Source: Pseudomonadota bacterium
GTDB lineage: Bacteria; Bdellovibrionota; UBA1018; CAIMNF01
Assembly (NCBI GenBank): GCA_027486675.1
Contig: JAIXOQ010000033.1
Location: 1-64,000, forward strand
Length of the DNA: 64,000 nt
Direction: 5' to 3'
Shown: piece after piece, positions 4,628-61,362 of the stretch
Layout of the letters: each line of letters begins with the position of its first letter
Position numbering within the stretch: the stretch's first letter is position 1
Notes under the pieces: model-generated
The model's input: only the letters and a program-made list of their open reading frames with translations
Databases searched by the model: none
What the model was told of the DNA's origin: nothing
Program-made: the position numbers and the translations under genes

Positions 4628-4975
4628 CTCTCAAACCCTTCTTACGTTAAACAGCACCCAACCACTCATCACCCCCACAGAGGCGTAGAGTGCATCACCA
4701 GGTTTTTTGTGAACCGGTGGAGGTCTTTTTTATCAAAAGAGACTTCAAAGTGATCGCGCTTCAGTTTCCCCTAACGGGCGCCATTTAACGCCTTCTCCTG
4801 TAAGGATGTGAGAGTGCAGTCCGCCACAGGGAAACAGAGCCAGAAGTTCAACCATAGTTCGACACTGAAGGCCTAGAGCACGATGCGAGCGACACTCTCC
4901 GCGGGAACGACTGGAATCCATTTATCGTTTCGGCAGATGAATCTGACTGTTTGGCGATGAGTCTTAGATTTGGGC

Positions 4976-5467
4976 TCAGAGATACAAAAAGTGAGCAACG
5001 ATCTCCATGTCTTCTTTCAGGTCAAATGCAGCGTCTTTGAAGCTCGGGGGACCGAAGCTCCCTTTGGCATCTCGAGAAACGGCAAGACCCTCCCGAGGGA
5101 TACCAATCCAATTCGTATCCATCTCTCCACTCGCGTTTTCGTCATGGATTGCGGACACCGCGTAGGTGCCTGGCACCAAATCCGAGAGCACGGTGGTTAC
5201 TAAATCCGGGTCCGTGATCTCAAGAGAGACCGTCTTAAAAGCTTCTTTCGCTTCGTCAGGAAATCCATTTTTTGAAAGGTAAAGACGCACGATGACCTTC
5301 CCTTTCGCGTTCTTCAGCCCCTTCAGCTTGATCTTCAGACTGAAGACCGGAGCGCTTGGAATGGCAGGATTCGGCGTAAGCTCCGCGGATCGCACTTCGC
5401 CAACCATTGCCAGGCCTAGAGCTAGAAGCATTCCTATCTTTTTGATTTTCTTGACTTTAATTTTCAT
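4976..5467 (-). CDS. DUF2141 family secreted protein
   Basis: Start taken at MKIKVKKIKKIGMLLALGLAM (signal peptide); DUF2141-like core GTYAVSAIHDENASGEMDTNWIGIPREG. Confidence 0.6.
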   Translation of the reverse strand: MKIKVKKIKKIGMLLALGLAMVGEVRSAELTPNPAIPSAPVFSLKIKLKGLKNAKGKVIVRLYLSKNGFPDEAKEAFKTVSLEITDPDLVTTVLSDLVPGTYAVSAIHDENASGEMDTNWIGIPREGLAVSRDAKGSFGPPSFKDAAFDLKEDMEIVAHFLYL

Positions 5468-5505
5468 GGCACTAACAGAATACAGCAAAATATTAGGCGG
5501 CGGAA

Positions 5506-6426
5506 TCAAACGCCGCTTCGCAGCCTGCACTCATCCGTCAACTCTTGAAGCAAGATCGCTACTCTCCGCTCACCCCGCCTCAATGCTGCGGTCACACCAA
5601 AGAGGTCGATGGGACGCGAAGTCCAGCTCGGCAAAACGGCCTGAAGCTGGCGCGTCTTGAGTTCCCGTGCAACGACAAATTCTGGAACCAGACATAGCCC
5701 TCGTCCTGCAGTCGCCACTCTCTTGATCGCGCTTAGGCTGTTGATTCGCAGAGAATGCTTCATCTCAATTTCGCGCTCTTCTTTCGTTCGTGAATTAACC
5801 ATTATCCCATCCGTAGCTGGACTCTGTCCTTTTTCGGGCAGAATTCTCAAAAGCCATGCAGGATCAATGTCCTCGATCCGGGCAATTTTGTGCTTCTTGA
5901 GAAAGTCTGGCGATGCATAGAGCTGACGTTGCACGGTGGTGAATCGGCTCTGAATGAAACTCTTGGGAGCCAGCACTGAACCCACTTCAATAAAGAGATC
6001 CTGGCTCGCGTAATCGACAGTATCTGGTTTGTTTTTCAAAGTGAGATCAATCCATAGCTTGGGATACTTCTCTGAAAATCTGGGTAAAAACGAATCGCAG
6101 AGAAAGAACCCAAATTCAAAGGGACACATAAGACGAATCAGCCCTTGTGGCTCGTCGCTCAGAGTACCAATGTATTCCTGTGCCAGACTGAGTCGCTCCA
6201 TTGCGTCAACGCAGAGCTCAGCGTACCGGTGGCCAACATCGGTAAGCGCAAAGTGTCGGGTACTTCGCAAAATCAGAACATGCCCAAGTGCCAACTCAAG
6301 ATTCTTTAATCTTCGACTCACATGAGAGTTGGGCAGACTCAAAACCTTTGCCGCCTTCGAAAGCGAGCCCTGGCGTGCGACTTCTATAAAAATCTGAATA
6401 TCCCGAGGGTCAGCCGATATTTCCAT
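5506..6426 (-). CDS. LysR family transcriptional regulator
   Basis: N-terminal HTH IQIFIEVARQGSLSKAAKVLSLPNSHVSRRLKNLE, LysR substrate-binding domain. Confidence 0.9.
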   Translation of the reverse strand: MEISADPRDIQIFIEVARQGSLSKAAKVLSLPNSHVSRRLKNLELALGHVLILRSTRHFALTDVGHRYAELCVDAMERLSLAQEYIGTLSDEPQGLIRLMCPFEFGFFLCDSFLPRFSEKYPKLWIDLTLKNKPDTVDYASQDLFIEVGSVLAPKSFIQSRFTTVQRQLYASPDFLKKHKIARIEDIDPAWLLRILPEKGQSPATDGIMVNSRTKEEREIEMKHSLRINSLSAIKRVATAGRGLCLVPEFVVARELKTRQLQAVLPSWTSRPIDLFGVTAALRRGERRVAILLQELTDECRLRSGV

Positions 6427-30712: not shown

Positions 30713-31186
30713 ATGAAGACATTACTCGTATTTGCACTTTCAGTTTTCAGTTCAGCAGCATTCGCAGCCGGAGACGCAGGTTGCGGTCTGGGTTCGATTA
30801 TCATTAAAGACAACACAAAAGTGATGCAGGTTCTTGCTGCAACCACCAACGGAACTTTCGGCAGCCAGACTTTCGGTATCTCAACTGGAACCTCGAACTG
30901 TTCATCAAAAGGTCTAGTCATGAATGAGAAGTCAGCGCAAATGATCGCTGAGAGCAATCTTCCTTCCCTAAAAGTGGAAGGTGCACGTGGAAACGGATCC
31001 ACTCTTTCAGCATTCGGCCTGGCTTTGGGCTGCAAAGAAGAGTCACTCGATCGTTTCGGCGCAACGATGAAAAAGAACTACTCTAACGTTTTTGGCGGCA
31101 ACAAAGATGCTAGCCAAGTAGTCAGTGCTGCTCGCGCTCAAGTTTCAAGTGATTCTGCTCTGAAACAAGCATGTTCCAACGGCTGA
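30713..31186 (+). CDS. DUF3015 family secreted protein
   Basis: AAGGA RBS; signal peptide; GCGLGS...NCSSKGL...LGCKEES DUF3015-like Cys pattern. Confidence 0.65.
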   Translation: MKTLLVFALSVFSSAAFAAGDAGCGLGSIIIKDNTKVMQVLAATTNGTFGSQTFGISTGTSNCSSKGLVMNEKSAQMIAESNLPSLKVEGARGNGSTLSAFGLALGCKEESLDRFGATMKKNYSNVFGGNKDASQVVSAARAQVSSDSALKQACSNG

Positions 31187-50502: not shown

Positions 50503-52320
50503 TTAGAGGGCCCCGAATGCACTAAACTCAGCGGGGCTTAGGCTTGCCACACCAAATTTTTCTAAAATGAGCTTTCGGTAAAGCCTGTGGTACCAAAAGT
50601 AATTCCGGCCAATCAGAGTGACGTAATTCCTAGTTTCAGCGTAAGGAATCAGATCTAAGAAAAGCATCCTGTTCCCCACCGGATAGCGTGCACGCCAGCG
50701 ATCGACCGCTTCTGGACCCGCATTGTAGGAGGCGAGTGCTAGCTCAACGTCCCCATCAAACCGATTAACGAGCATCTGAAAGTATTGAATCCCAAGACGA
50801 ATATTTGTATCCGCATCGAGAAGCTGCCGCTTGCTCACACCACGCTGCATCGTGCGCGCTGTCGCTGGCATCAGCTGCATGAGACCCACTGCTCCAACCG
50901 GCGAGCGGGCATTGGCCCGGAATGCGCTTTCCTGGCGGATTAGGGATGCCACCAAGATGGGATTCATACGGCCTGCGTGTTTTAAAACGAGATCAAAAAA
51001 CTCGAGCGGGTAGAAGAGCTGAAGCGTTTTATCGACGACGTATTCTGCCTTAGAGCGAAATACGCTATCGAGCAGACGAAATAGTGCTACGGGGTTGCCT
51101 GCGCGGTAAGCGAAGGATGCGAGGTAAAGCCTGACACCCGGTTCAAGCTGACTGAGCTCCTCAAGCTTCGGCTGAATCGGCGTCAGCAGCTTCAGCACTA
51201 AATCTTTACGTTTTCTTCGTGTCATTTCTTCCATGGCTTGGATCCATGGATTCACGCGCTCATCGAGTGCACTCCGCGTTTGTACGAGCGGATCTATTTC
51301 TTGGCCTAAGTTCCCAGACAACACCGAATCCCCGTCGGATAAAGAAAGCGTATGAAAGCCAAGAGGATTCATCTGAAAAAGTGCGTCGTAGTTATCAAAA
51401 AACGCGCTTTTATCCTTTGTTTCCCGAGCACACCATGCGGTCCAATAACGTGCTCGTGAAGAGTAGTCATTCATGACGGCATTGGATAAACGCTGCAAAG
51501 GGGGCGCCGCTGTCACGCAGTCTTTCTTAATGATCGATAGCAGTGCCAGACGAAATCTGGAGTTGTCCGTGTATTTGGTCGTCTCTGCGCACTGATCGGC
51601 CCTGGCATAAAGCCGGATAGCACGTTCGCGAAACTCTTCTTCAGGCATTTGCTCTTCGCTTTTTAGACCTAAGAAATTGTAGAGTTCGCTCGGCGCACAA
51701 ATCCCAGGCTCTAAAATCTTTGCTTCGACGGTCTTCAGCCCTTCTGTGATTCCAGGAAATGTTTTCAGCGCACGGTAATAGTCCCCTGGCCGTTGCTTCG
51801 GCACGGGAGCATATTCACCTGACTCAAGTTTTTGTGCGATTTGTTCAATCACAGGTGCGGGAGCGCGTCTACGCCGTTTTTTCGGGCGTTCTTGCTCCAC
51901 TTTTAAGTTGGGCGCAGTCGGTCCTTCTAACGCATCTTCTGACTGAAGCCAGCGAGCATACCATTTCGGCTTTAAAAATCGACAGGCTTCAGGCGCCCCG
52001 GTGAGCACACGGCAACGAAGAGGAAGCGGACGGGAGCCGGGGTTGACTGCCAATGCGCGCTCAAATTCATCAAAAAAGGAAATGTCTTCAGTTTTTAGGC
52101 TGGCATCGGGCGGGACATTTTCCAGAACTGAAGAAAATCGAACACCACTGCCCGATTCAGTAGTTCTTGCGTCGATCACTCGACGCGTGCGGACTTCTTC
52201 GCGGATCTCTCTCTTCACGGAACTACATGAAATAAAGAACGGGAGAAGGCTTAAAAAAAGTGCGAAACTGAGGCGGTGAGCTGGCTTTGGATAACAGATG
52301 AGTGGTCGTCTCTTGATCAT
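50503..52320 (-). CDS. soluble lytic murein transglycosylase (superhelical domain + SLT domain), lipoprotein
   Basis: Lipobox FISCSS; SLT motif GLMQLMPATA...ASYNAG. Confidence 0.8.
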   Translation of the reverse strand: MIKRRPLICYPKPAHRLSFALFLSLLPFFISCSSVKREIREEVRTRRVIDARTTESGSGVRFSSVLENVPPDASLKTEDISFFDEFERALAVNPGSRPLPLRCRVLTGAPEACRFLKPKWYARWLQSEDALEGPTAPNLKVEQERPKKRRRRAPAPVIEQIAQKLESGEYAPVPKQRPGDYYRALKTFPGITEGLKTVEAKILEPGICAPSELYNFLGLKSEEQMPEEEFRERAIRLYARADQCAETTKYTDNSRFRLALLSIIKKDCVTAAPPLQRLSNAVMNDYSSRARYWTAWCARETKDKSAFFDNYDALFQMNPLGFHTLSLSDGDSVLSGNLGQEIDPLVQTRSALDERVNPWIQAMEEMTRRKRKDLVLKLLTPIQPKLEELSQLEPGVRLYLASFAYRAGNPVALFRLLDSVFRSKAEYVVDKTLQLFYPLEFFDLVLKHAGRMNPILVASLIRQESAFRANARSPVGAVGLMQLMPATARTMQRGVSKRQLLDADTNIRLGIQYFQMLVNRFDGDVELALASYNAGPEAVDRWRARYPVGNRMLFLDLIPYAETRNYVTLIGRNYFWYHRLYRKLILEKFGVASLSPAEFSAFGAL

Positions 52321-53223
52321 GTTCTCGATACTTCTCTTCGTTTCATGAACGAAGCTGTAAATTTGGGAATACCTACCTATTGGTCCGAACCAACATTAAT
52401 TCTAGCATCGCATGAACCGAATGCACTGCGTGTGAGAAGGTATAGTGGAGATTTTAAACTCGGTGAAATTGAACTTGTCCCTGCGTCACAGTTTTGGCAG
52501 GCGCATTACCGGGTAGATCCGCCCGTGAACGATGCGTACTTTGCCCCGCTTGCTGTGCTGGAGCGTGCGCTCGGGGATCGGGTGATGAATCCTCCCGCAC
52601 TTTTGCGAAATCAAAGTGAAAAAATCCCTCCTGAGTCGCTGAAAGAGTTCAGACCGGTCACGGTGACTCTAGGGTCTGCGAAAGACTTAAGGTTGGCTTG
52701 GGATGAACTGGTGAACATCCAGGAACTGGTGGTGAAACCCTGGGGCGAAGCCCAAAGCAAGGGCGTGCACCGCGTGAAAAAACCAAATGACTTTTCTGCA
52801 TGGGAGGCATTGGTGAATCAGGAGACCCAGGCGTTCACACGCACGGTCGTGATCCAGGAATTTTTGGATGGGATCGAGCGGGGCGAACTTCGGTCCTGGT
52901 TTATTTTTGGAAAATTCTTAGGAGCACTGCGCAAACATCCACTGCCCAATGACTTCCTGGTATCGGTCGATGCTGGCTCCCGCCTGGAGCGGTATGACGT
53001 TAAGCTCGAAGACAAGCGTGAGCTGGATGCCTTGGGAGCGGTGCTTATGGCCCAAGGCGCAGCCCTCGCTGCGATTGATTGGATCCCAGGCCCGGGGAAG
53101 AGCGGATTTTCAGGCGCAAAGATTTCGGACTACAACATCACATCGCCAGGACTGCTGGTCCAGATGGAGCAACTTCACGGAAAGAACTTTGCTGCAGAAG
53201 CGATTGGGTGGCTGCGGCGGTGA
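52276..53223 (+). CDS. glutathione synthetase-like ATP-grasp protein
   Basis: The N-terminal D..(x)..DTS..FMNEA pattern and C-terminal ATP-grasp resemble GshB. GTG at 52276 would overlap the divergent slt 5' end by 45 nt; alternative ATG at 52345. Confidence 0.5.
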   Translation: MSWLWITDEWSSLDHVLDTSLRFMNEAVNLGIPTYWSEPTLILASHEPNALRVRRYSGDFKLGEIELVPASQFWQAHYRVDPPVNDAYFAPLAVLERALGDRVMNPPALLRNQSEKIPPESLKEFRPVTVTLGSAKDLRLAWDELVNIQELVVKPWGEAQSKGVHRVKKPNDFSAWEALVNQETQAFTRTVVIQEFLDGIERGELRSWFIFGKFLGALRKHPLPNDFLVSVDAGSRLERYDVKLEDKRELDALGAVLMAQGAALAAIDWIPGPGKSGFSGAKISDYNITSPGLLVQMEQLHGKNFAAEAIGWLRR

Positions 53224-53251
53224 GGCCGCAGCCAAAACGTTAAAACAACGG

Positions 53252-53620
53252 CTACTTTTTTGCAGGAAGAGCTGCAGGCGCTTTGCACTGTCCACCGACG
53301 CTCACTAGCGGCGACACACAGCCTGACTTGATCGGGAGCGTAGTCACAGGGCGCGCTATCCCTTTCGATGGGCCTGCCGCGCCGCCATTCTGAGAGCTGG
53401 TGCTCCGAAGGACCTCGCTCTCTCCGCCACAAGCTTTCGATGCATCGGCCCAACAATTCTTTTCGGTGTCAGTCCGGCCATTGCCTTCAGTCCCATTTTT
53501 GCAGGTCCAAGAACAGGACCAACCGGTCTCATACTTGTACGCTCTGCTTTGCTCCGGAAAAAAAACAGCAGTAATCACGGTAATAAAGAGAAAGGAGTAA
53601 AACTTGTTTATCTTCTTCAT
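53252..53620 (-). CDS. small secreted cysteine-rich protein (operon gene 3)
   Basis: Signal peptide; SCSWTCKNG...NCWADASKACGGE pattern shared with the two upstream genes; ATGA overlap. Confidence 0.55.
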   Translation of the reverse strand: MKKINKFYSFLFITVITAVFFPEQSRAYKYETGWSCSWTCKNGTEGNGRTDTEKNCWADASKACGGESEVLRSTSSQNGGAAGPSKGIARPVTTLPIKSGCVSPLVSVGGQCKAPAALPAKK

Positions 53621-53910
53621 GACTTCTTCCCCTGGATGTTCTGGAATACACTCTTGGGAAGTACATTCTTGGGAATCGCTTTGCGCTCATTGCAGCTGCT
53701 TCCAGACTTCTCTTCGCAGTCGACAGTATCGCAACCACCGGTCGAATTAAAACTACCTGTAGCGCCACTGGAACAGACCCAAGTACATCGACACCCTCCC
53801 GAGTCCATCGCCATACTGCCCCAAGTCCGTTTTGCGAAAGCATCATTCATGAAGAGGGCCGTGAACATGAACGTGATCACCGTAACTTTTGAACCTTTCA
53901 AATTTTTCAT
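53617..53910 (-). CDS. small secreted cysteine-rich protein (operon gene 2)
   Basis: Signal peptide; CRCTWVCSSG...GGCDTVDCEEKSGSSC. Confidence 0.55.
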   Translation of the reverse strand: MKNLKGSKVTVITFMFTALFMNDAFAKRTWGSMAMDSGGCRCTWVCSSGATGSFNSTGGCDTVDCEEKSGSSCNERKAIPKNVLPKSVFQNIQGKKS

Positions 53911-54179
53911 TTCGAGGCCCCATTCTGCAGCACCGTAATCGCAGGCTTCGTCAAAGTAGTTCCGCCCTTAACTGCAATTTTTTCACCACAGGCATTAATT
54001 GCCGTAGTCCTGCAATTCAGTGCATTCGCCCACTCCCCAAGCTGCTGGCTTCCTGAATTGCCGTTGTCACACGTGTATGTGCAATACTTAGAATTATTCA
54101 TGTCCACTTGTTTAAGTGCAAAAGCGGGACTCACTGAAAACAACATCGCAAAAACCGAAACCATAATCATCAACTTCAT
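53907..54179 (-). CDS. small secreted cysteine-rich protein (operon gene 1)
   Basis: Signal peptide MKLMIMVSVFAMLFSVSPAFA; YCTYTCDNG...NCRTTAINACGEK. Confidence 0.55.
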   Translation of the reverse strand: MKLMIMVSVFAMLFSVSPAFALKQVDMNNSKYCTYTCDNGNSGSQQLGEWANALNCRTTAINACGEKIAVKGGTTLTKPAITVLQNGASK

Positions 54180-54344
54180 TCTGTTCCCCTTTTTCTTAGT
54201 TCTTGACCAAACTACTGGTGACTACCAAGAACACGAAAACTCCCGTCTTCCGGTCGAGCTAGTGTTGATTTTAGATTACCCTCCGCCCTAAACAAAAATC
54301 AATGCGTCATCTATGACATGCGCCATGAGGCGCTTGAGAGGTTC

Positions 54345-54385
54345 GTAAATTTACAAATAGAATCTGAGTTTCCATTTGTAAATTT
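54345..54385. repeat. perfect 13-bp inverted repeat TAAATTTACAAAT-N15-ATTTGTAAATTTA
   Basis: Read directly from the intergenic region between the Cys-rich operon and cassette copy 1. Confidence 0.5.
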
Positions 54386-54454
54386 ATAGGGAATCTCTGA
54401 TTCCGGCTGAAGACTGGCCCGCTCCTGGGTTTACAACCCTGCTTTCTGCACTGC

Positions 54455-54468
54455 CGTTTCCGGAAACG
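54455..54468 (+). promoter_or_regulatory. 14-bp perfect palindrome CGTTTCCGGAAACG upstream of cassette copy 1
   Basis: Identical palindrome recurs upstream of copy 3 (57681-57694) within a conserved ~90-bp block. Confidence 0.35.
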
Positions 54469-54515
54469 AAAACTTCCTAAGTGTTTCATGAGCCTAGCCT
54501 AGGCAACTTTCGCCA

Positions 54516-54543
54516 TTGACGAGCCCCCCCCCCAATCTAAATT
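54516..54543 (+). promoter_or_regulatory. putative promoter TTGACG-N16-TAAATT with a 10-C homopolymer in the spacer
   Basis: Conserved in all three cassette copies; C10 tract at 54524-54533. Confidence 0.4.
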
Positions 54544-54606
54544 GGAAAAGTTGCCAGGGCGGGTGGTCTGTCGGGGCGGGATAACTTTTAGGGAGATAAA
54601 ACCGAG

Positions 54607-54954
54607 ATGAAAAAGATTTTTGGACTCATGGCGTTTGGGATGGTGTTGGTTGCGGGGACTGCGGAGGCACGCAATTACGCCTGCTTTAACTGTAAAGTGG
54701 GTCAACCCTGCAAAGTGGACCTATTGGTCACTGTTACGAACTCAAATGGCACAGTTACAACCAGTACAGAGTCTATCAATGGAATCGGGGTCAGGGACGG
54801 AAGCGGCACAGCTTGTGGCGCGCGCGTAGCGACCGCCGCGCTTCCGCTTGGGAGCCGACTTGTGCCACAAACAAACTGCACCGGAGGCGCGGTAGCGGTA
54901 GCCGGTATGTGCGCTAAGGCATCAATCGCAGTCTCGGCAACACCAACAAAATAA
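54607..54954 (+). CDS. secreted cysteine-rich protein, cassette copy 1 (conserved signal peptide, variable mature domain)
   Basis: MKKIFGLMAFGMVLVAGTAEA|RNYACFNCKVGQPCK...; RBS TAGGGAGAT. Confidence 0.6.
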   Translation: MKKIFGLMAFGMVLVAGTAEARNYACFNCKVGQPCKVDLLVTVTNSNGTVTTSTESINGIGVRDGSGTACGARVATAALPLGSRLVPQTNCTGGAVAVAGMCAKASIAVSATPTK

Positions 54955-54979
54955 CCGCCCTCAATCATTCAATTGATAT

Positions 54980-55022
54980 CGGGCCCTGGGACCAGACCTT
55001 GTCTGCCCGGGGCTTCTTTTTG
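54980..55022 (+). terminator. strong rho-independent terminator (conserved with the copy 2 terminator)
   Basis: gggccctgggaccagacc/ggtctgcccggggc bulged stem + TTCTTTTT. Confidence 0.65.
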
Positions 55023-55115
55023 CGTGTGCTCGCCACACGATTTGCCTATGGTAAACTTCCAAAAATGCAGGCCTTGCTTCAGTGGAACTATCGCTCTTTT
55101 CCGCTGGGAGAAACC

Positions 55116-55382
55116 ATGAACATTCAGATGGTGAATTTCGGAGAGTTTTTAATGTCGCGCCCAGCTGGACATGTGGCAGCGCAAATCATCGTTGAGAATT
55201 TCAGACCTGCTTCCCACGACTAAGTCATTGAGCTCGACTTTCTTAACGTGAAAGCAATCGGTCCATCTTGGTTGCACGAAGTGGTCAAGGGACTGCGCGG
55301 CAAGTACCCAAACAAAATCCAAGTTTTAGATCAAGGCAATGCCTCCGTGATTGAGTCGCTCAAGTTTGTCGACCTTCGGTAG
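55116..55382 (+). pseudogene. STAS-like (DUF4325) gene inactivated by an in-frame TAA (GAA>TAA at codon 36)
   Basis: About 90% nt identity to the intact gene at 57341-57607. Upstream, 55065-55115 keeps only the first and last codons of the GHKL ATPase gene (internal deletion), producing the chimeric ORF 54999-55223. Confidence 0.65.
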
Positions 55383-55519
55383 TTACGGCCTGAGTAAGAA
55401 CCAGATCATTTGGGTTGCACGTCCAGCGCATCAAGCGCAACTTCTGTTGCACCCAAAAAGTAACAATTCTTCATCTCTAAATCTTGGTCTCACCCTGGGG
55501 TTTTTTGTGCCGAAATCAG

Positions 55520-55915
55520 TCAATCCCCGTACACATCAAACTTCAATGTAGATCGTGCGTGAAGCAGCTTCTTATCCAAAGTCCACAGCGGTACTTTGTA
55601 TTCAGCCGCAAGCGTTCCAATCAGACAGTCTAAGGTCCCCAAAGTGATGCCGTTTTTCCTGGCCCGGAAATAATTCCACGCTGCCTGCCCCCAATGACGA
55701 TCTGTGACTTCCAGAAATTCAAAACCCAGCATGTACTCCCAGAGACTATGAAAAATTTCAGGCGTCCGGGCACCCTGGCAAACTTCTACGTGTATCGGAC
55801 GCACAATGCAGATCGCTGCGTTGTTCTTGATCATACGCTTAAGTCTCATGCACTCCGGATTCTTCGGAAGTGATCCTGCAATCCAAACCGAACTATCGAC
55901 GAGCACGGGTTGCAT
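55520..55915 (-). CDS. vapC: type II toxin VapC (PIN domain)
   Basis: VLVDSSVWI N-terminal PIN motif; conserved acidic residues. Confidence 0.7.
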   Translation of the reverse strand: MQPVLVDSSVWIAGSLPKNPECMRLKRMIKNNAAICIVRPIHVEVCQGARTPEIFHSLWEYMLGFEFLEVTDRHWGQAAWNYFRARKNGITLGTLDCLIGTLAAEYKVPLWTLDKKLLHARSTLKFDVYGD

Positions 55916-56108
55916 TGTTTGACCCTTTTTTCGTCACGGCACTTGAATCAAAGAAGTCCGTCCCAAGCATCTCAAACATACCCTGCCTTCTGCTTTGAGC
56001 GATCAGCGCATCAAGCGCATTGTTCAAGGTCTCTTTGATTGAATTCGTCCCGCCTAGTTTCCGGGCCAAATTTAACTTCTCTTCATCAAGCTCAACTGAG
56101 GTCTTCAT
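55893..56108 (-). CDS. vapB: type II antitoxin VapB (ribbon-helix-helix/Rv0623-like)
   Basis: 71 aa; MKTSVELDEEKLNLARKLGG...; overlaps the vapC start. Confidence 0.6.
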   Translation of the reverse strand: MKTSVELDEEKLNLARKLGGTNSIKETLNNALDALIAQSRRQGMFEMLGTDFFDSSAVTKKGSNNATRARR

Positions 56109-56226
56109 ATATCAAATATCTCCGTATCAGATATATTGTATCACAGCAGCATGGATCGCGATTCAGCGTGAACTGGGAATTAGTTCTTTAATAAAAACAA
56201 ACACTTACGGCGCGCAATTTTCACCA

Positions 56227-56254
56227 TTGACGAACCCCCCCCCCAATCTAAATT
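56227..56254 (+). promoter_or_regulatory. putative promoter TTGACG-N16-TAAATT with C10 tract in the spacer (copy 2)
   Basis: C10 at 56235-56244. Confidence 0.4.
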
Positions 56255-56319
56255 GGAAAAGTTGCCAGGGCGGGCGGTCTGCCGGGGCGCGCTCTTAACT
56301 TTATGGAGATTTAACCGAG

Positions 56320-56649
56320 ATGATGAAGATTTTTGGGCTCATGGCGTTTGGGATGTTGGTGATGGCAGGGAATGCGGAGGCAGACGTTAAATGTGATCCT
56401 TATCAAGGTAGAGGTTTCAAGTGTAGCGGCACCCTTGCCTGCGGGAAATCATTCTTAGTGATAGAGCTACAGGGAGGTGGAGGCGGCAGTTGGCACTGCA
56501 GCGCCACTCGCGTCGGTCAAAGCCCAGACATTGTGACAGGTGGTTCACCCATTTCTTCACTCCCTCAATCAACAGTGCAGCAGCTTCCTGCCGATCTTAA
56601 GGCTAAGGTGCAAGCAGCTCAGCAAAAAGCCGCAGCACCAAAAAAGTAA
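56320..56649 (+). CDS. secreted cysteine-rich protein, cassette copy 2
   Basis: MMKIFGLMAFGMLVMAGNAEA|DVKCDPYQGRGFKCSGTLACGK...; K/A-rich C-terminal tail. Confidence 0.6.
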   Translation: MMKIFGLMAFGMLVMAGNAEADVKCDPYQGRGFKCSGTLACGKSFLVIELQGGGGGSWHCSATRVGQSPDIVTGGSPISSLPQSTVQQLPADLKAKVQAAQQKAAAPKK

Positions 56650-56675
56650 CCGCTCTTAATCGTTCGATTCATTTC

Positions 56676-56717
56676 CGGCCCCGGGACCAGACCTGGTCTG
56701 CCCGGGGCTTCTTTTTG
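56676..56717 (+). terminator. strong rho-independent terminator
   Basis: gccccgggaccagacc/ggtctgcccggggc (14 bp with 1-nt bulge) + TTCTTTTT. Confidence 0.7.
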
Positions 56718-56759
56718 CCAGTGCGACGCCACACTGAGTGTCTATGATAAACTTCAAAA

Positions 56760-57344
56760 ATGCAGGCCTTGCTTGAATGGCACTTTTCCACAAAACCTCA
56801 AACAGACAACGCCGAGGTTTCTGGAACTAGAGATGTTTTTGAAGCTCGGTCTCAAAAAGTATTTTCTGCTCTTCTAAAACATGGTTTTACCGAATCTGAT
56901 GCAAGCCTGGTCTATTCAATCATTGGAGAACTCGGCAATAACTCCTTTGACCACAATCTCGGTTTTTGGCGCGATCAGCCCGGCTGTTACTTCAGTTTTG
57001 AGTTCGATGCTTCGGGCGTAACCCTTGGACTGGCAGACCGCGGACGTGGGATCTTTAACTCGCTCAAGAGAGTCCTTCCAGAACTCCAGAGCGACCAAGA
57101 GGCAATCGAAATTGCTTTTCAAAGAGTCATCTCAGGTCGCGCCCCTGAGCAGCGTGGTAATGGACTTAAATTTGTGCGGGCGATCATCAATGGCAATCCA
57201 AAACGAGGGCTTGTAGCTCGTTCTGGCACAGGTCTACTCGCCTGTGGTGGCCATGCAAGTTGGATCGCTACGACATCGAACTCACTTTTTTCGGAACCCA
57301 CCGTAGGCGGCACAATCGCTCTTATTCGCTGGGAGAAACCATGA
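56760..57344 (+). CDS. GHKL-superfamily ATPase (HATPase_c; anti-sigma-factor/partner-switching kinase-like)
   Basis: N-box ELGNNSFDH, G1 box DRGRGI, G2 box GNGLKF; 194 aa with no sensor or transmitter domain. Confidence 0.6.
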   Translation: MQALLEWHFSTKPQTDNAEVSGTRDVFEARSQKVFSALLKHGFTESDASLVYSIIGELGNNSFDHNLGFWRDQPGCYFSFEFDASGVTLGLADRGRGIFNSLKRVLPELQSDQEAIEIAFQRVISGRAPEQRGNGLKFVRAIINGNPKRGLVARSGTGLLACGGHASWIATTSNSLFSEPTVGGTIALIRWEKP

Positions 57345-57607
57345 AAATACAGATGGTGAAATTTGGAGAGTTTTTGATGTCGCGCCCAGCGGGACATGAA
57401 GCGGCGCAAATCATCGTTGAAAATTTCAGACCCGCGTCCCACGACGAAGTGATTGAGCTCGACTTTCTGAACGTGAAAGCAATCGGCCCATCCTGGTTGC
57501 ACGAAGTGGTCAAAGGACTGCGTGGCAGTTACCCAAACCAGATCCAAGTTTTAGATCAAGGCAATGCCTCCGTGATTGAGTCACTCAAGTTTGTCGATCT
57601 TCGGTAG
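57341..57607 (+). CDS. STAS-like domain protein (DUF4325-like), translationally coupled to the upstream ATPase
   Basis: ATGA start/stop overlap; GGGAGA RBS; MKIQMVKFGEFLMSRPAGHEAAQIIVENF...IELDFLNVKAIGPSWLHEVV. Confidence 0.55.
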   Translation: MKIQMVKFGEFLMSRPAGHEAAQIIVENFRPASHDEVIELDFLNVKAIGPSWLHEVVKGLRGSYPNQIQVLDQGNASVIESLKFVDLR

Positions 57608-57680
57608 CTGCGGCCCAAGTAAACATCAGATCATTTTGGTTTCACGGCCGGCCGAGCTCGATTGAGCTCCCCAGCACTGC

Positions 57681-57694
57681 CGTTTCCGGAAACG
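57681..57694 (+). promoter_or_regulatory. 14-bp palindrome CGTTTCCGGAAACG upstream of cassette copy 3
   Basis: Second exact occurrence. Confidence 0.35.
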
Positions 57695-57741
57695 AAAATT
57701 TCCTAGGCGTTTCATGACCTTAGCTTAGGCAACTTTTGCCA

Positions 57742-57765
57742 ATGACGAGCCCCCCCATCTAAAGT
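57742..57765 (+). promoter_or_regulatory. degenerate cassette promoter (ATGACG ... TAAAGT) with C7 tract and shortened spacer
   Basis: C7 at 57750-57756; spacer is 12 nt versus 16 nt in copies 1 and 2. Confidence 0.3.
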
Positions 57766-57830
57766 GGAAAAATTGCCGAGGCGGGCGGTCTGCTTCGGCG
57801 CGGGATAATATGTAGGGAGATCATACAGAA

Positions 57831-58082
57831 ATGATGAAGATTTTTGGGCTCATGGCGTTAGGGATGGTGGTGTTGGCAGGGGCTGCGGAGGCGAAGCGAA
57901 TTTGCAGACAAGGATCTCCAGCAACTGGATGTTCGATAGAGTGCACATCCCAAAGTTCCAACGATTGTACTATTGCGTGCACTGGATCTCAGTGCCGTGT
58001 TATCAGATCGGGTGGCCCCGATTATTATGGGGAGTGCTACGGCAAAGCTGTTCAAAAGAACAACACTGCTGCTTCCAAATAA
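57831..58082 (+). CDS. secreted cysteine-rich protein, cassette copy 3 (8 Cys)
   Basis: MMKIFGLMALGMVVLAGAAEA|KRICRQGSPATGCSIECTSQSSNDCTIACTGSQC... Confidence 0.55.
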   Translation: MMKIFGLMALGMVVLAGAAEAKRICRQGSPATGCSIECTSQSSNDCTIACTGSQCRVIRSGGPDYYGECYGKAVQKNNTAASK

Positions 58083-58207
58083 ACATTAGATTATCAAATA
58101 CTACCCCTTTTGTGTGCTGCGTCCGCAGTCATCCTGAAAGGGGGCCCTCTCTCCAGTTACCGATACCCGAAACAAATTTTTCCTAACCAAGACTCAGCCC
58201 AAGAAAC

Positions 58208-58444
58208 TCACTTCACGCACTTTCCACTGGAGAGCTTCAGTCCTGCATCGCATTTACCCGAGGCGCAGGCCTGGCCGAGTGCGCACTCTGTCTTTGAGGA
58301 CGACGTGCCTACAGTAACCGGAACAGGCCTACAGTTGCCGCGATCCGGTACATAACCAGGAGGACACTTCCGGTCCGTGGTGGCCCCGAAGGAACTGGAA
58401 CAACAAACTAACCCCAAAAAAACCATGAAACCAAAAGTTCTCAT
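58208..58444 (-). CDS. small secreted cysteine-rich protein
   Basis: Signal peptide MRTFGFMVFLGLVCCSSSFG; mature region with 6 Cys. Confidence 0.5.
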   Translation of the reverse strand: MRTFGFMVFLGLVCCSSSFGATTDRKCPPGYVPDRGNCRPVPVTVGTSSSKTECALGQACASGKCDAGLKLSSGKCVK

Positions 58445-58473
58445 TGTTGCCTCCTAGATCCCTAAAACTTCAG

Positions 58474-58812
58474 TTATCTACACTGACCAGCACCTAACTT
58501 TTTCCCTGGGAGACACACACTGCCAGGCAGTGCAATCTTCCCGCGCGCCTTACAGTTAAAGTAGAAACGGCTCTGCTTACCTACGAAAGCGGTTGGCGAA
58601 CAAGCCATTGCGCCAGTCAAGTCTGCTACGTCTTCATTTCTGCTATTACAGCAGGAAAGTGCGCGAGTATTGTGTTCCGACGTAAAAAGGCACAAAACAG
58701 GCCCGCTTGTCGCATTCGGAGTCGTCATAAACTGACGTGACGCATTGTCCGACGGTATACAAGTTTGAGCACCTGCCGAAATGGATAAAAGAGCGCTAAG
58801 TAGAATGATCAT
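58474..58812 (-). CDS. small secreted cysteine-rich protein
   Basis: Signal peptide MIILLSALLSISAGAQT; 8 Cys including CC. Confidence 0.5.
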   Translation of the reverse strand: MIILLSALLSISAGAQTCIPSDNASRQFMTTPNATSGPVLCLFTSEHNTRALSCCNSRNEDVADLTGAMACSPTAFVGKQSRFYFNCKARGKIALPGSVCLPGKKLGAGQCR

Positions 58813-58898
58813 AAAAATCCCCTTCTACAAGCTTATCGACACAACGCGATAAAAATCAACGTGTCCCGACAGACACACAAAACCCTACTCGCCAAGAC

Positions 58899-60533
58899 TC
58901 AGGGAGAGGCAGGCATTATCCCCTGCCCGAAAATCACCCCACGCTGAGGACCTCGAAGCGGAAGGTCTTCCCACGAAGTGCTCGATACCAAACACTCGCC
59001 CATCAGTTTTGCGCCTGCGAGCTGAGGATCGGTGTGCTTTGGGATGATCTTCTCTTCCGTCACCTCAAACTTTGAACCCCGAAGCTTGAGGCACGACAAA
59101 CCCTTAAAACCGCGATCTAGGCAAGTCAGCATGCGTCCAAAGTCATAGGCCTGGGAACACTGCAAATCCCGTCCCAGTCGCATCTGTGAAAAAATACGTT
59201 CATCGCTATAGTTAGGGCGCTCCGCTTCACTCAAAACACTTCTGTAGTCATTTCCATGGATCAAGGCAGAACAACCCGGAAGATGTTTCGAGCTTTTCGC
59301 GCACAGATAGTCGACATCAAATAGATACTTTTTCAGCGCGCCAAGATAATGATGGATCGCCTCCACATTTTTCCGTCGCCCCCACAGATCGGAACTATGG
59401 TGCGTACTTAAGAAAGCCCCCGTGTAGTCAGCAAGAAACTGCACACGAACAATCAAATCCCGAACCCGCGAAACTTCAGCTGCGTAAAATGCGAGTGTAC
59501 GGCACGCACTTTTGATCGACTGGCGATCTGGACTTGACACTAACTCATCCTCGTCATTTTCGTAATCGAGGAGAGTATTGTATTTGACGTACTTCGCCCT
59601 GAGCGGTGGGATGACTTTACTATTTTTGATTTCTGTCTCTGCACGTTTGAGAAACGCCTGAAAGACATTAGAAAACATCTGATCCCCTGAAAAAGAAAGG
59701 GCATCAAAGGTCAAAAGTTGGGATGCATCTTCGGGTGTCGCCATAGAACTCTTGGGTCCCGACGATTCCGCCTCAGCAATAAGCACAGGGAGGTTCGTCC
59801 TCACTTGCAATTCAAGATTCGAGTCTTCGCTTGAAACTCGTTTCTTTCGATTCAGGGAATAACTCAATTTTAAGATCTTGTCAGCCTCCTCCCGAGAGAG
59901 AACTTTCCCCAGTAGTTCCCCCGTAGGATTCAACAATTTATCCAGCTCAGCAATCGCATCGACCTGCGTACCGCGTGTCTCATCCTTGCTTTGCTTTTTT
60001 CGGATCAAGAGTAGATCCAGGACGTAGCCCTCCTGGACAACTGAGAGATAGCCAAAGCCGCATTTTTGCCGAAATGAGGCGACACTTGATTTTAATTGGT
60101 CAAGGTCACTCGGGATCATTTTGTACTCTGCTTCGGAATGAACATCCCGAAATAGCTCTAATCGGATATGGCGAACTTCACTTTCATTTGACCCCAAAAT
60201 GGATCGACTTACGCCCACCTTAAGGGCATCACCGACAGCCATCCCTGAAGAGGTAGCAAGCTCAAGCTCGCTAAAAGAAGAAATTTTGGAGTTGGAATAA
60301 CGAACACTAAACTCACCCAAATTTCTTAAACTGGGTATTTCGAAGCCTACCGCATTCTGCTCAACGCAAGTGCCCGCCTTGAAGTCACCGGTATAGACAT
60401 CAGCAGCTTGCCCATTAAAGACGCTTTCCTGCATGAGACTTACGTCGAGCACATCGACGGAGGACGCGCCAAAGGCATGATTTCCTTGGAATATCGCAAC
60501 CATCAGACCACACACCCCGAAGAGCTTAAACAT
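58899..60533 (-). CDS. large hypothetical secreted protein (544 aa)
   Basis: Start taken at MFKLFGVCGLMVAIFQGNHAFGA signal peptide; no family recognised. Confidence 0.5.
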   Translation of the reverse strand: MFKLFGVCGLMVAIFQGNHAFGASSVDVLDVSLMQESVFNGQAADVYTGDFKAGTCVEQNAVGFEIPSLRNLGEFSVRYSNSKISSFSELELATSSGMAVGDALKVGVSRSILGSNESEVRHIRLELFRDVHSEAEYKMIPSDLDQLKSSVASFRQKCGFGYLSVVQEGYVLDLLLIRKKQSKDETRGTQVDAIAELDKLLNPTGELLGKVLSREEADKILKLSYSLNRKKRVSSEDSNLELQVRTNLPVLIAEAESSGPKSSMATPEDASQLLTFDALSFSGDQMFSNVFQAFLKRAETEIKNSKVIPPLRAKYVKYNTLLDYENDEDELVSSPDRQSIKSACRTLAFYAAEVSRVRDLIVRVQFLADYTGAFLSTHHSSDLWGRRKNVEAIHHYLGALKKYLFDVDYLCAKSSKHLPGCSALIHGNDYRSVLSEAERPNYSDERIFSQMRLGRDLQCSQAYDFGRMLTCLDRGFKGLSCLKLRGSKFEVTEEKIIPKHTDPQLAGAKLMGECLVSSTSWEDLPLRGPQRGVIFGQGIMPASP

Positions 60534-60580
60534 GGGACCGAATACTATAGAATTTCGATCTAAAGTACAATCCATTGAAA

Positions 60581-61234
60581 TCAAAGACTCACCCACGGGT
60601 TTGGGATGCGCGCAAAGACCGGCACAATCGCAATTTCTGTAAATCCTTGCTTGAGAAACTGTGGGGTAGAAGTCTTGGGCTGCGTCATCGCCACCTCGAC
60701 TCTGACCTGATGGACATTTGCGAGCCTGTACGACCGTGCGCGCATCAAATCCGCGTAAAGCCCCTCTTTCCTCCGTTCAGGCACCACAAAAGCACCCCGG
60801 AGGTACGCTTGATCCGCGACTTGAAAAGAACTCACCCCACCCACGATATCGCCGCCTTCTTCCACAATCAGCGTTTCGTGCCTTGAGTCATTGAGTAAAA
60901 AATACGTCGACTCTATAAGCTGATTCTTAAAATTAGGGTGGATCTGCCAAGCGCGGATTTTACTTTCAACAAAGCGAGGCACGTCTTTCACTTCAAGGAT
61001 CCGAAACCGATTCATATCGGGGCAGATCAGTTTCGCTGGATCCAGCGACCGCATCAGCGCGCGGATCTGAATCACCTCCAGCACTTTGCATTCATCTACA
61101 AGATATCGGTGTAAATCCGGATGCGAACAGGGCCAGAGATGAATCGTGAAATTTGCACTTCTGCGATCATACGCATCGATCACCGCACGAATCTCATGAA
61201 ACCGAGACGGGGGCAGACGCATTCTTGTGATCAA
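60581..61234 (-). CDS. GNAT family N-acetyltransferase-like protein
   Basis: C-terminal IVGGVSSF...AYLRGAFVVPERRKEGLYADLM acetyl-CoA-binding-like motif. Confidence 0.5.
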   Translation of the reverse strand: MITRMRLPPSRFHEIRAVIDAYDRRSANFTIHLWPCSHPDLHRYLVDECKVLEVIQIRALMRSLDPAKLICPDMNRFRILEVKDVPRFVESKIRAWQIHPNFKNQLIESTYFLLNDSRHETLIVEEGGDIVGGVSSFQVADQAYLRGAFVVPERRKEGLYADLMRARSYRLANVHQVRVEVAMTQPKTSTPQFLKQGFTEIAIVPVFARIPNPWVSL

Positions 61235-61362
61235 ATTGTGCCAGCGCTCTTTTGAGGCAGGGGAATCAACATAGGCGAACTCTGGTTCGTACTGGACGAA
61301 AGCGCCGGGAGTGACCGAACTGGTTGCAAGAAAACTAAATTGTATGAAGTCGTCGAGAAGAA

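Follow-up and report, generated by a model that had tools for sequence, protein, structure and literature searches.

Our analysis concerns a stretch of 64,000 nucleotides from a Bdellovibrionota bacterium (contig JAIXOQ010000033.1, with a length of 71,414 bp, positions 1 to 64,000; hereafter the window), and within it an island at positions 53252 to 58812 in which eight small genes for cysteine-rich proteins lie beside a gene for a large exported protein of 544 amino acids. The first-pass annotation had described the products of these eight genes as secreted; all eight open reading frames were found where it had placed them, with 'secreted' to be taken strictly as 'predicted Sec-exported'. Three of the genes form an operon on the minus strand (op90, op97 and op122), three belong to repeated cassettes on the plus strand (cas1, cas2 and cas3), and two (m112 and m78) follow the large gene on the minus strand:

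53907-54179, minus strand: op90, operon gene 1; ribosome-binding site AGGGGA; signal peptide MKLMIMVSVFAMLFSVSPAFA; four cysteines in the mature part; paralogue of op97 and op122
53617-53910, minus strand: op97, operon gene 2; ATGA overlap with op90; six cysteines in the mature part
53252-53620, minus strand: op122, operon gene 3; ATGA overlap with op97; six cysteines in the mature part
54607-54954, plus strand: cas1, 115 amino acids; leader MKKIFGLMAFGMVLVAGTAEA, common to the cassettes; unique mature part of 94 amino acids with six cysteines
56320-56649, plus strand: cas2, 109 amino acids; common leader; unique mature part of 88 amino acids with four cysteines
57831-58082, plus strand: cas3, 83 amino acids; common leader; unique mature part of 62 amino acids with seven cysteines
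58208-58444, minus strand: m78, 78 amino acids; ribosome-binding site AGGAGG; predicted export; six cysteines in the mature part
58474-58812, minus strand: m112, 112 amino acids; ribosome-binding site AAGGGGA; predicted export; eight cysteines

All eight reading frames start with ATG, preceded at a distance of 5-12 nt by a purine-rich motif resembling a Shine-Dalgarno site, and all eight encode a hydrophobic N-terminal signal of the Sec type that ends in a small-x-small cleavage site (SRA, AFA, AFA, AEA in three proteins, SFG and AGA) and has no lipobox. These calls were made by reading the sequences and by a hydrophobicity scan rather than with a dedicated signal-peptide predictor. The n-h-c layout of a type I signal is present in all eight and in the 544-amino-acid protein, with the exception that m112 has no basic n-region. 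m78 was considered as a lipoprotein and rejected as such, since its LVCC motif does not match a lipobox. This protein had been credited with 6-7 cysteines; there are eight in total, two of them in the signal peptide and six in the mature part, and the count of eight given for m112 holds. The m112 gene ends 29 nt upstream of m78 on the same strand, and the two are likely to be co-transcribed.

The clustering of such genes is a real property of the island. A crude scan that asked for an ATG start, a lysine or arginine in the first eight residues, a hydrophobic 10-mer and then at least four cysteines recovered seven of the eight island genes. It gave a single match in the other 58 kb of the window and had no match in loci of related bacteria amounting to about 125 kb. 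The sole match outside the island is a DUF3015 protein (30713-31186; Pfam E-value 2e-41), which belongs to a conserved family. The eight mini-proteins have a further feature in common at their other end: the C-terminal residue is lysine or arginine in seven of them (PKK, PTK, ASK, AKK, ASK, CVK and QCR), the eighth ending in KKS, compared to 20% of the long proteins of the window (P about 8e-5, with fewer independent events given the paralogy). The basic C-terminus could be a common stability or sorting feature.

The three cassette genes share their promoter, 5' untranslated region and signal peptide as one module. The signal peptide is encoded by 21 codons, M(M/K)KIFGLMA(F/L)GM..AG.AEA, and consists of a basic N-terminus, a hydrophobic core and an A-E-A cleavage site. 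Reading in the direction of transcription, the module is made up of a repeat element of 83 nt called D4 (in copies 1 and 3), a promoter-like site, a 5' untranslated region in which a small stem-loop is conserved, a ribosome-binding site (GGAG) and the signal peptide. The following elements belong to it:

54516-54543, plus strand: cassette 1 promoter-like sequence TTGACG-N16-TAAATT, with a run of ten C residues (C10) at 54524-54533 in the spacer
56227-56254, plus strand: cassette 2 promoter-like sequence TTGACG-N16-TAAATT, with a C10 run at 56235-56244 in the spacer
57736-57765, plus strand: cassette 3 promoter-like sequence TTGCCA-N18-TAAAGT, with a C7 run at 57750-57756
54971-55021, plus strand: hairpin and T-run terminator after cas1 (repeat D3), with a second copy at about 56677-56716
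54454-54468 and 57680-57694, no strand assigned: perfect palindrome CGTTTCCGGAAACG within D4, candidate operator

The boundaries of the module are sharp. Between copies, DNA identity is 70-85% upstream of the genes and 84-90% in the signal-peptide region (z-scores of 9-15 against shuffled sequences), and from the codon after the AEA site the similarity of the cores falls to the level of random sequence (z-scores of -0.7 to 1.5 against shuffles). The 3' boundary is just as sharp in cas1 and cas2, where similarity returns 18 nt before the stop codon and continues through the hairpin terminator at 81%. Point substitution on its own could not have made the cores this different and left the flanks so alike. 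Two routes would account for it: an exchange of the cores, or a copying of the module to different genes, with gene conversion keeping its copies uniform.

A conserved leader, unrelated cores and a conserved 3' end also resemble the precursor families of ribosomally synthesised and post-translationally modified peptides (RiPPs), and the cassette genes might on this ground be taken for RiPP or bacteriocin precursors. We consider this very improbable: the leader is a Sec signal with an A-E-A site and not a RiPP or double-glycine leader, so that the genes do not have the make-up of such precursors; neither a modification enzyme nor an ABC exporter with a peptidase domain nor an immunity gene is present in the region from 53 to 61 kb; and the cores, at 62-94 amino acids, are long for RiPPs.

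In cassettes 1 and 3, a distance of about 50-60 nt separates the -35 element from the palindrome CGTTTCCGGAAACG upstream of it, a perfect one of 14 bp; it is absent from cassette 2. Its two copies are the only ones in the window, where 0.14 would be expected by chance, and it is a candidate operator for some regulator. The stem in the 5' untranslated region is 9 bp long and shows no covariation, and a search of the 53-59 kb region against Rfam at E-values up to 1 gave no match. Another inverted repeat, with 20-nt arms that are 90% complementary and a 1-nt loop (TAAATTTACAAATAGAATCT/AGTTTCCATTTGTAAATTTA), is found at 54346-54386 in the divergent intergenic region between the operon and cassette 1, where it overlaps a promoter-like TTGAGA-N18-TAGAAT.

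The C tracts lie in the spacers of the cassette promoters. In cassettes 1 and 2, the C10 run fills most of the predicted 16-nt spacer, a homopolymer of more than 9 nt between the predicted -35 and -10 elements. Apart from these two, the 64 kb window has no C or G run that reaches a length of 9, the number expected for such runs being about 0.1, and in about 114 kb of sequence from relatives no C or G run exceeds 8. The tract length differs between the paralogues (C10, C10 and C7), and the spacer of cassette 3 falls 4 nt short of those in the other two cassettes, which shifts the best match to a -35 element. Homopolymers in this position have been studied in other bacteria. The promoter C stretch of the Bordetella genes fim2, fim3 and fimX controls their transcription and differs between paralogues and strains, from C7 to C19 (PMC1891110), and the vlp genes of Mycoplasma hyorhinis are switched ON and OFF in transcription when a homopolymer in the -35/-10 spacer gains or loses bases (PMC2268961). 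By analogy, the cassettes may be phase-variable through slippage at the C10 promoters.

The same C10 run is seen at cassette 1 in a Logan assembly from the same strain (run SRR16126844). This assembly is 100% identical to the window but breaks at the repeated cassette leader; one of its contigs corresponds to window positions 56245-57571, with the same cas2 sequence, and another to 53073-54563. One Logan contig begins at the base that directly follows the C10 run of cassette 2, a break for which either the repeat or a heterogeneous tract could be responsible.

The likeness to these systems goes further than the homopolymer. The vlp genes, the vpma genes of M. agalactiae and the vsp genes of M. 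bovis are likewise clustered, and have a conserved 5' untranslated region and signal peptide followed by differing mature parts (PMC2268961); the vlp homopolymer is poly-A, whereas that of the cassettes is poly-C. In Bordetella, as here, a C homopolymer of differing length lies in the promoters of several paralogues for exported proteins (PMC1891110). The resemblance ends with the products and their control. The Mycoplasma genes encode repeat-containing variants of one lipoprotein, with a lipoprotein signal, and the cassettes, in a Gram-negative Bdellovibrionales-like host and with predicted switching, encode unrelated cysteine-rich mini-proteins with a Sec type I signal. The fim genes encode homologous fimbrial subunits and depend on BvgA, whereas the mini-proteins would be expressed from a plain sigma-70-like promoter.

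It is in this light that we considered the cassette genes as phase-variable surface or adhesion/recognition proteins, possibly decoys of phage receptors, in a repertoire of the Vlp or Fim kind. The combination of C tracts, a conserved 5' untranslated region and signal peptide, and variable mature parts is the layout of vlp, vpma and vsp (PMC2268961) and of fim (PMC1891110), and low-complexity tails rich in alanine, proline and lysine are present in cas1, cas2 and op122. This reading is doubtful, as we saw no lipobox, beta-barrel, pilin or sortase-type anchor, and the mature parts are tiny (62-94 amino acids) and mutually unrelated instead of being variants of one adhesin.

On the basis of their sequences, the mini-proteins fall into at least five unrelated families. 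The products of op90, op97 and op122 form a single paralogous family with the pattern C-x3-C ... C-x7-C, in which four cysteines and two glycines are invariant at 17-36% identity. An AlphaFold2 model of mature op122 shows, with moderate confidence, a beta-beta-beta-alpha arrangement (predicted local distance difference test, pLDDT, 76-88 over residues 1-45), in which the C-x3-C pair lies on a strand and the C-x7-C pair on the helix; the pattern is not of the CxxxC/CxC type. In op122 this N-terminal domain is followed by a C-terminal C-x10-G-x-C loop. No significant similarity was seen among the mature parts of cas1, cas2, cas3, m78 and m112. The one exception to the separation of the families is that the Gly/Ala-rich C-terminal region of cas1, with its C...G-x-C loop, weakly resembles op122 (E-value 0.007). 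The short motif C-x2-G-x(5-9)-G-x-C-[KR], a possible disulfide loop, is present in op122, cas1, m78 (twice) and m112; the two loops in m78 have the form C-x2-G-x6-9-G-x-C. The Ala/Pro/Lys-rich C-terminal tails of cas1, cas2 and op122 are of low complexity.

Searches for relatives of these proteins were largely empty. In a profile search of 5.8 billion proteins, for which the three cassette proteins alone served as queries, each query found only itself. In a collection clustered at 90% identity, the clusters of six of the small proteins contain no sequence but that of this organism, and the other two, cas1 and cas3, are not in the collection; the exact forms of cas1, cas3 and the 544-amino-acid protein are not among the proteins on record for the contig. 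Pfam, NCBIfam, PADLOC and PHROGs gave nothing above threshold for any of the small proteins or for the 544-amino-acid protein, the matches of m78 to DUF7107 and to the EB module in Pfam being weak and sub-threshold, and sequence searches of the PDB gave no relatives of the small proteins. The PDB matches of m78 to 'Pizza' designer proteins were discarded as repeat artefacts. m112 has no relatives in the PDB or among viral sequences, viral scans for the cassette leader, m112 and the cassette 2 ATPase (see below) had 0 matches, and so did a metagenome scan for genes encoding the leader KIFGLMAFGM. Among known cysteine-rich folds (CS-alpha/beta defensins, knottins, and the EB module and DUF7107), no profile or structure matched above threshold.

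The suggestion of the first-pass annotation that the locus is accessory was borne out by a comparison with four related contigs (L009, L010, L011 and L013). All four keep the genes for Patatin, AMP-ligase, SLT and GshB on one side and those for IHF(HU), PheT, PheS and L20 on the other, and differ from the window in what lies between:

53224-61362, no strand assigned: variable slot of the window between the GshB-like gene and the IHF/HU gene; the whole lineage-specific insertion, 8139 nt, placed by synteny with L009, L010, L011 and L013
60581-61234, minus strand, within the slot: GNAT acetyltransferase-like gene; sub-threshold to borderline match to Pfam GNAT; absent from the slots of the relatives
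L009, the nearest relative (PheT 79%, SLT 88% and IHF 90.5% identical to the window): slot of 1522 nt with one FG-GAP-repeat gene
L010 (PheT 52.5%): slot of 1825 nt with two unknown genes and a MerR gene
L011 (PheT 54.6%): slot of 419 nt with a MerR gene only
L013 (PheT 52.5%): slot of 459 nt with a MerR gene only

The slot of the window is therefore 8139 nt long, against 419-1825 nt in the four relatives, and no island sequence was found there: the slot matched none of the four loci in blastn or tblastx searches. It also has no repeat copies in the rest of the window. A syntenic and invariant locus, which would have spoken against an accessory nature, was not seen in the four contigs, and the locus can thus be called accessory. 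The gene in the L009 slot (4664-6070) encodes a 468-amino-acid FG-GAP-repeat protein that is not related to the 544-amino-acid protein, and the presence of an unrelated gene there indicates that the slot is a recurrent site of gene turnover in the lineage. Its right side has been remodelled too, since the window has the GNAT-like gene in place of MerR. In the relatives that have it, the MerR gene lies directly upstream of the IHF gene (8347-8826 in L010, 10955-11395 in L011 and 7860-8306 in L013); it is absent from the window. If the 544-amino-acid reading frame is taken from its most upstream possible start, it adjoins or overlaps the 3' end of the GNAT-like gene. The proposal of fast turnover is likewise supported at the level of the genes themselves, by dissimilar cores between flanks that are 70-90% identical and by the lack of homologues of the cassette proteins among the 5.8 billion searched.

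The composition of the DNA gave no such signal. A comparison of GC content and codon usage between the island and its flanks, proposed in the first-pass annotation, revealed no anomaly: GC content, GC content at third codon positions and codon scores of the island are within the range of the window, and a foreign origin could not be argued from them. Because codon bias is almost nil, composition neither supports nor excludes a recent transfer. The left flanking gene, encoding the GshB-like ATP-grasp protein (52276-53223), has few homologues, one of them 73% identical and the rest at most 45%; one of these homologues, like several homologues of the cassette 2 ATPase, is labelled Bdellovibrionales. 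The lone match obtained when this flank was used to scan a genome collection was spurious. At the far end of the window, an apparent truncation of pheT was dismissed, as the frame merely runs past the window.

The large neighbour, which had been called unassignable, can be given a likely fold:

58899-60533, minus strand: 544-amino-acid exported protein; predicted MACPF/CDC-like N-terminal half, cysteine-containing helical and beta C-terminal half
58859-58878, minus strand: terminator-like hairpin between the 544-amino-acid gene and m112

Its N-terminus resembles a signal peptide, with some ambiguity as to the start codon (60533, 60575 or 60596). The protein has five relatives among 1.84 billion representative proteins, making a family of six, and a metagenome scan for this family had 0 matches. 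No member of the family matches Pfam MACPF (PF01823) or thiol-cytolysin at E-values up to 10. An AlphaFold model built from the six-sequence alignment (predicted template modelling score 0.69, mean pLDDT 68) was used for two independent structure searches, and both led to MACPF/CDC proteins. The first 44 Foldseek matches all belong to this fold, with probabilities up to 1.0, E-values of only about 1e-3 and low TM-scores. Sequence identity to the structural matches is 8-16%. The secondary structure runs from a strand through two amphipathic helices rich in serine, glycine and alanine to long strands, a poorly predicted second helical cluster and a further strand, which corresponds in the model to the bent central beta-sheet between two helical clusters (transmembrane hairpins TMH1 and TMH2) of the MACPF/CDC fold. 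The MACPF signature reads Y/W-G-T/S-H-F/Y-x6-G-G. Of this the family has a partial version, C-G-F-G-Y-x6-G-Y in the 544-amino-acid protein, in which C158-G-F-G-Y-x6-G169, and within it G159-x2-Y162-x6-G169, are invariant; the spacing from G159 to G169 is that of the signature glycines. Judging from these predictions, the protein is a probable, highly divergent member of the MACPF/CDC fold. It differs from known pore-formers of this class (TgPLP1, GNIP1Aa, Mpf2Ba1, complement C8/C9, pneumolysin and Plu-MACPF) in having no Pfam match, in its unmatched, cysteine-containing helical C-terminal domain, and in that its pore formation is a prediction.

A functional coupling of this protein to the mini-proteins is possible. 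The link is a weak one, because a homologue with 38% identity on another contig (L014, the one homologue locus that was fetched) has no small cysteine-rich genes beside it and because the terminator-like hairpin separates the 544-amino-acid gene from m112.

The presence of a probable pore-former raises the question of whether the mini-proteins protect the cell instead of acting on others, as periplasmic immunity or self-protection factors or as inhibitors directed against the neighbouring pore-former or against incoming toxins and hydrolases. The small disulfide-rich protein CD59 blocks complement MACPF proteins, and arrays of periplasmic immunity proteins exist in other bacteria; arrays of small, divergent signal-peptide genes in variable islands are typical of immunity clusters, and we count this in favour of such a role. 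So do the Sec signals, which deliver to the periplasm only, in an island with no visible outer-membrane secretion system; the position of m112 and m78, which come right after the MACPF-like gene and have its orientation; and the basic C-terminus of seven of the eight proteins, which would fit resistance to tail-specific periplasmic proteases. Nevertheless, immunity appears to us an unlikely role. No cognate toxin, type VI secretion system or Rhs/polymorphic toxin gene lies beside the trio or the cassettes, and the slot contains no such genes and no Pfam or PADLOC matches that would mark an immunity array; the L014 homologue does without such neighbours; the hairpin stands between the MACPF-like gene and m112; and phase-variable expression would be unusual for immunity genes.

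Repeats, a toxin-antitoxin module and decayed genes, all reported in the first-pass annotation, are indeed present in the island, and two of the cassettes carry, or carried, a further pair of genes:

56760-57344, plus strand: GHKL-type ATPase (RsbW/SpoIIAB-like) of cassette 2; weak match to Pfam HATPase_c_2; N, G1 and G2 boxes
57341-57607, plus strand: DUF4325 STAS-like protein; PF14213 at 29.6 bits, cut-off 23; start overlaps the ATPase stop
55065-55383, plus strand: decayed module of cassette 1, recognised by repeats D1 and D6 and by alignment
55520-56108, minus strand: type II toxin-antitoxin pair between cassettes 1 and 2; VapB at 55893-56108, PIN-domain toxin VapC at 55520-55915

VapB (PF09957, 33.1 bits, cut-off 23.4) and VapC (PF01850, 31.7 bits, cut-off 23.6) overlap at 55893-55915 and have all the marks of a VapBC pair. 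In cassette 1, all that a deletion has left of the ATPase gene is its first and last few codons, and the DUF4325 pseudogene is interrupted in frame by a TAA at 55221-55223; both genes are missing from cassette 3. The intact ATPase scores 17.6 bits against HATPase_c_2, below the cut-off of 27.4, and is thus not a Pfam member, but its Bergerat motif, formed by E57/N61, D93-x-G95-x-G97 and G133-N-G-L136, is invariant in 16 homologues and it has a STAS-like neighbour. It has 3487 homologues, found in Bdellovibrionales, 'Deltaproteobacteria' metagenome-assembled genomes and Elusimicrobia, where some versions are fused to winged helix-turn-helix domains of the ArsR type, and it matches the phage family phrog_3364 (7e-13). 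Its pairing with DUF4325 is kept in 5 other loci, which include L004 (7574-8848) and L006 (2296-3570), both 350 nt after a tRNA-Gln gene, L007 (6793-8836), beside an integrase and conjugation genes of an integrative and conjugative element, and L008 (182-1023), in another context. The pair has no PADLOC match, and no sigma factor or PP2C gene is found in the island or in the other ATPase-DUF4325 loci.

The two genes recall RsbW-RsbV and SpoIIAB-SpoIIAA, in that a GHKL ATPase/kinase with invariant boxes overlaps the gene of a small STAS-like protein. They differ from these systems in their reversed gene order, the lack of a sigma factor or PP2C phosphatase nearby and the sub-threshold HATPase_c_2 score, as well as in the occurrence of the family on islands, integrative and conjugative elements and in phage-like contexts and its occasional fusion to a winged helix-turn-helix domain. 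The pair is an independent, probably mobile two-gene unit that has been duplicated here together with the small gene, and may be a mobile module of a regulatory or defence-like kind that has yet to be characterised. It is not needed in cis, since cas1 and cas3 persist without it. No small exported gene, leader or promoter of the cassette type occurs upstream or downstream of the modules in the other loci; for this reason, and because cas1 was kept while its module decayed, we rejected the idea that the small genes are obligatory partners of the ATPase-STAS pair.

Another possibility is that some or all of the small reading frames are non-functional, having arisen by chance or being remnants in decay within a slot that gathers junk, with the leader merely part of a tandemly duplicated ATPase-STAS mobile module. 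The cassette proteins without homologues, the other five being singletons at 90% identity, the uninformative codon usage, the decayed genes of the island and the absence of the exact cas1 and cas3 forms from the proteins on record for the contig would all be in keeping with it. It is nonetheless improbable. All eight genes combine a Shine-Dalgarno-like site, an ATG, a signal peptide and a cysteine-rich mature part with mostly even cysteine counts, a combination seen once in the other 58 kb of the window (the DUF3015 protein) and 0 times in about 125 kb of relatives; the trio has kept its cysteines and glycines invariant at 17-36% identity and its model shows a mini-fold; the cas1 reading frame is intact although the neighbouring ATPase-STAS genes have decayed; and the leader and promoter were not found near the modules elsewhere.

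Taken together, these observations lead us to favour, with a probability of about 0.5, the view that the locus is an accessory secretome islet that encodes disulfide-stabilised mini-proteins exported by Sec and a perforin-like protein, with likely phase-varying cassettes, and that its products are extracytoplasmic factors of antagonism or predation. The islet would have entered the genome of a Bdellovibrionales-like bacterium at a slot prone to recombination (gshB-like | ihf-pheT). Following export by Sec, the mini-proteins would presumably be oxidised in the periplasm to disulfide-stabilised folds. The duplicated module, consisting of promoter, 5' untranslated region, signal peptide, 3' end and terminator, would act as an expression-and-export cassette for unrelated cores, and slipped-strand mispairing at C10 would change the length of the promoter spacer and switch each gene ON or OFF independently of the others. 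The most likely role of the products would then be that of interaction factors with fast turnover (toxins, inhibitors or binding proteins), at work beyond the cytoplasm in antagonism or predation, with the pore-former or alongside it. We count VapBC and the ATPase-STAS pair, the latter found elsewhere near tRNA-Gln and beside an integrase and integrative and conjugative element, as support for an accessory islet, because they are typical companions of variable islands.

Several points weigh against this reading. No outer-membrane secretion system was identified in the island, and Sec export reaches the periplasm only. The terminator-like hairpin and the lack of small cysteine-rich genes beside the L014 homologue, discussed above, weaken the case for a bond between the pore-former and the mini-proteins. 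The tract length varies between paralogues only, with C10 in both data sets of the one strain, and the promoters were called as consensus matches, at 9/12 positions. Lastly, the genome is nearly without codon bias, too weakly biased to discriminate even the reading frame, and codon usage therefore cannot confirm that the small reading frames are coding.

A bolder form of the islet hypothesis is that the locus is a plug-in repertoire, in which a module switched stochastically by its poly-C tract is recombined onto unrelated cores to give a bacterium of a predatory lineage a combinatorial, bet-hedged set of secreted toxins or binders, together with a hitherto unrecognised branch of MACPF/CDC proteins, orphan by sequence, for which the mini-proteins could be cargo, targeting subunits or CD59-like inhibitors. 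In this extended form, we hold it to be rather unlikely.

Lineage-specific clusters of disulfide-rich mini-proteins with signal peptides are known from fungal small secreted cysteine-rich proteins and from the conotoxin superfamilies, and conotoxins also have a conserved signal followed by a hypervariable mature region. The likeness is one of organisation only, no relationship in sequence or fold having been found, and the sharp boundaries of the cassettes, at the 3' end too, point to modular recombination or duplication rather than to accelerated point substitution of the conotoxin kind. Taken singly, the elements of the locus have precedents in variable islets, promoter homopolymer switches, conserved-leader families and bacterial MACPF proteins. 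What is new is their combination, with unrelated cysteine-rich cores on one leader/promoter module, in this lineage, and beside a MACPF/CDC-like protein that is an orphan by sequence, and with no homologue detected for the three cassette proteins.

Among the bacteria studied as 'living antibiotics' are the Bdellovibrionota and their relatives, in which the majority of secreted proteins lack a functional assignment. If our reading of the locus is true, it would add several new families of bacterial disulfide-rich mini-proteins, a class that is known from eukaryotic venoms and effectors and is poorly charted in bacteria, and would provide a candidate contingency locus in a phylum for which we found none described. 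The highly divergent MACPF/CDC-like protein, missed by sequence profiles, would widen the known spectrum of perforin-like toxins in bacteria. At 8 kb, the locus is compact and self-contained, and its modular leader/core layout would be reusable for secretion engineering.

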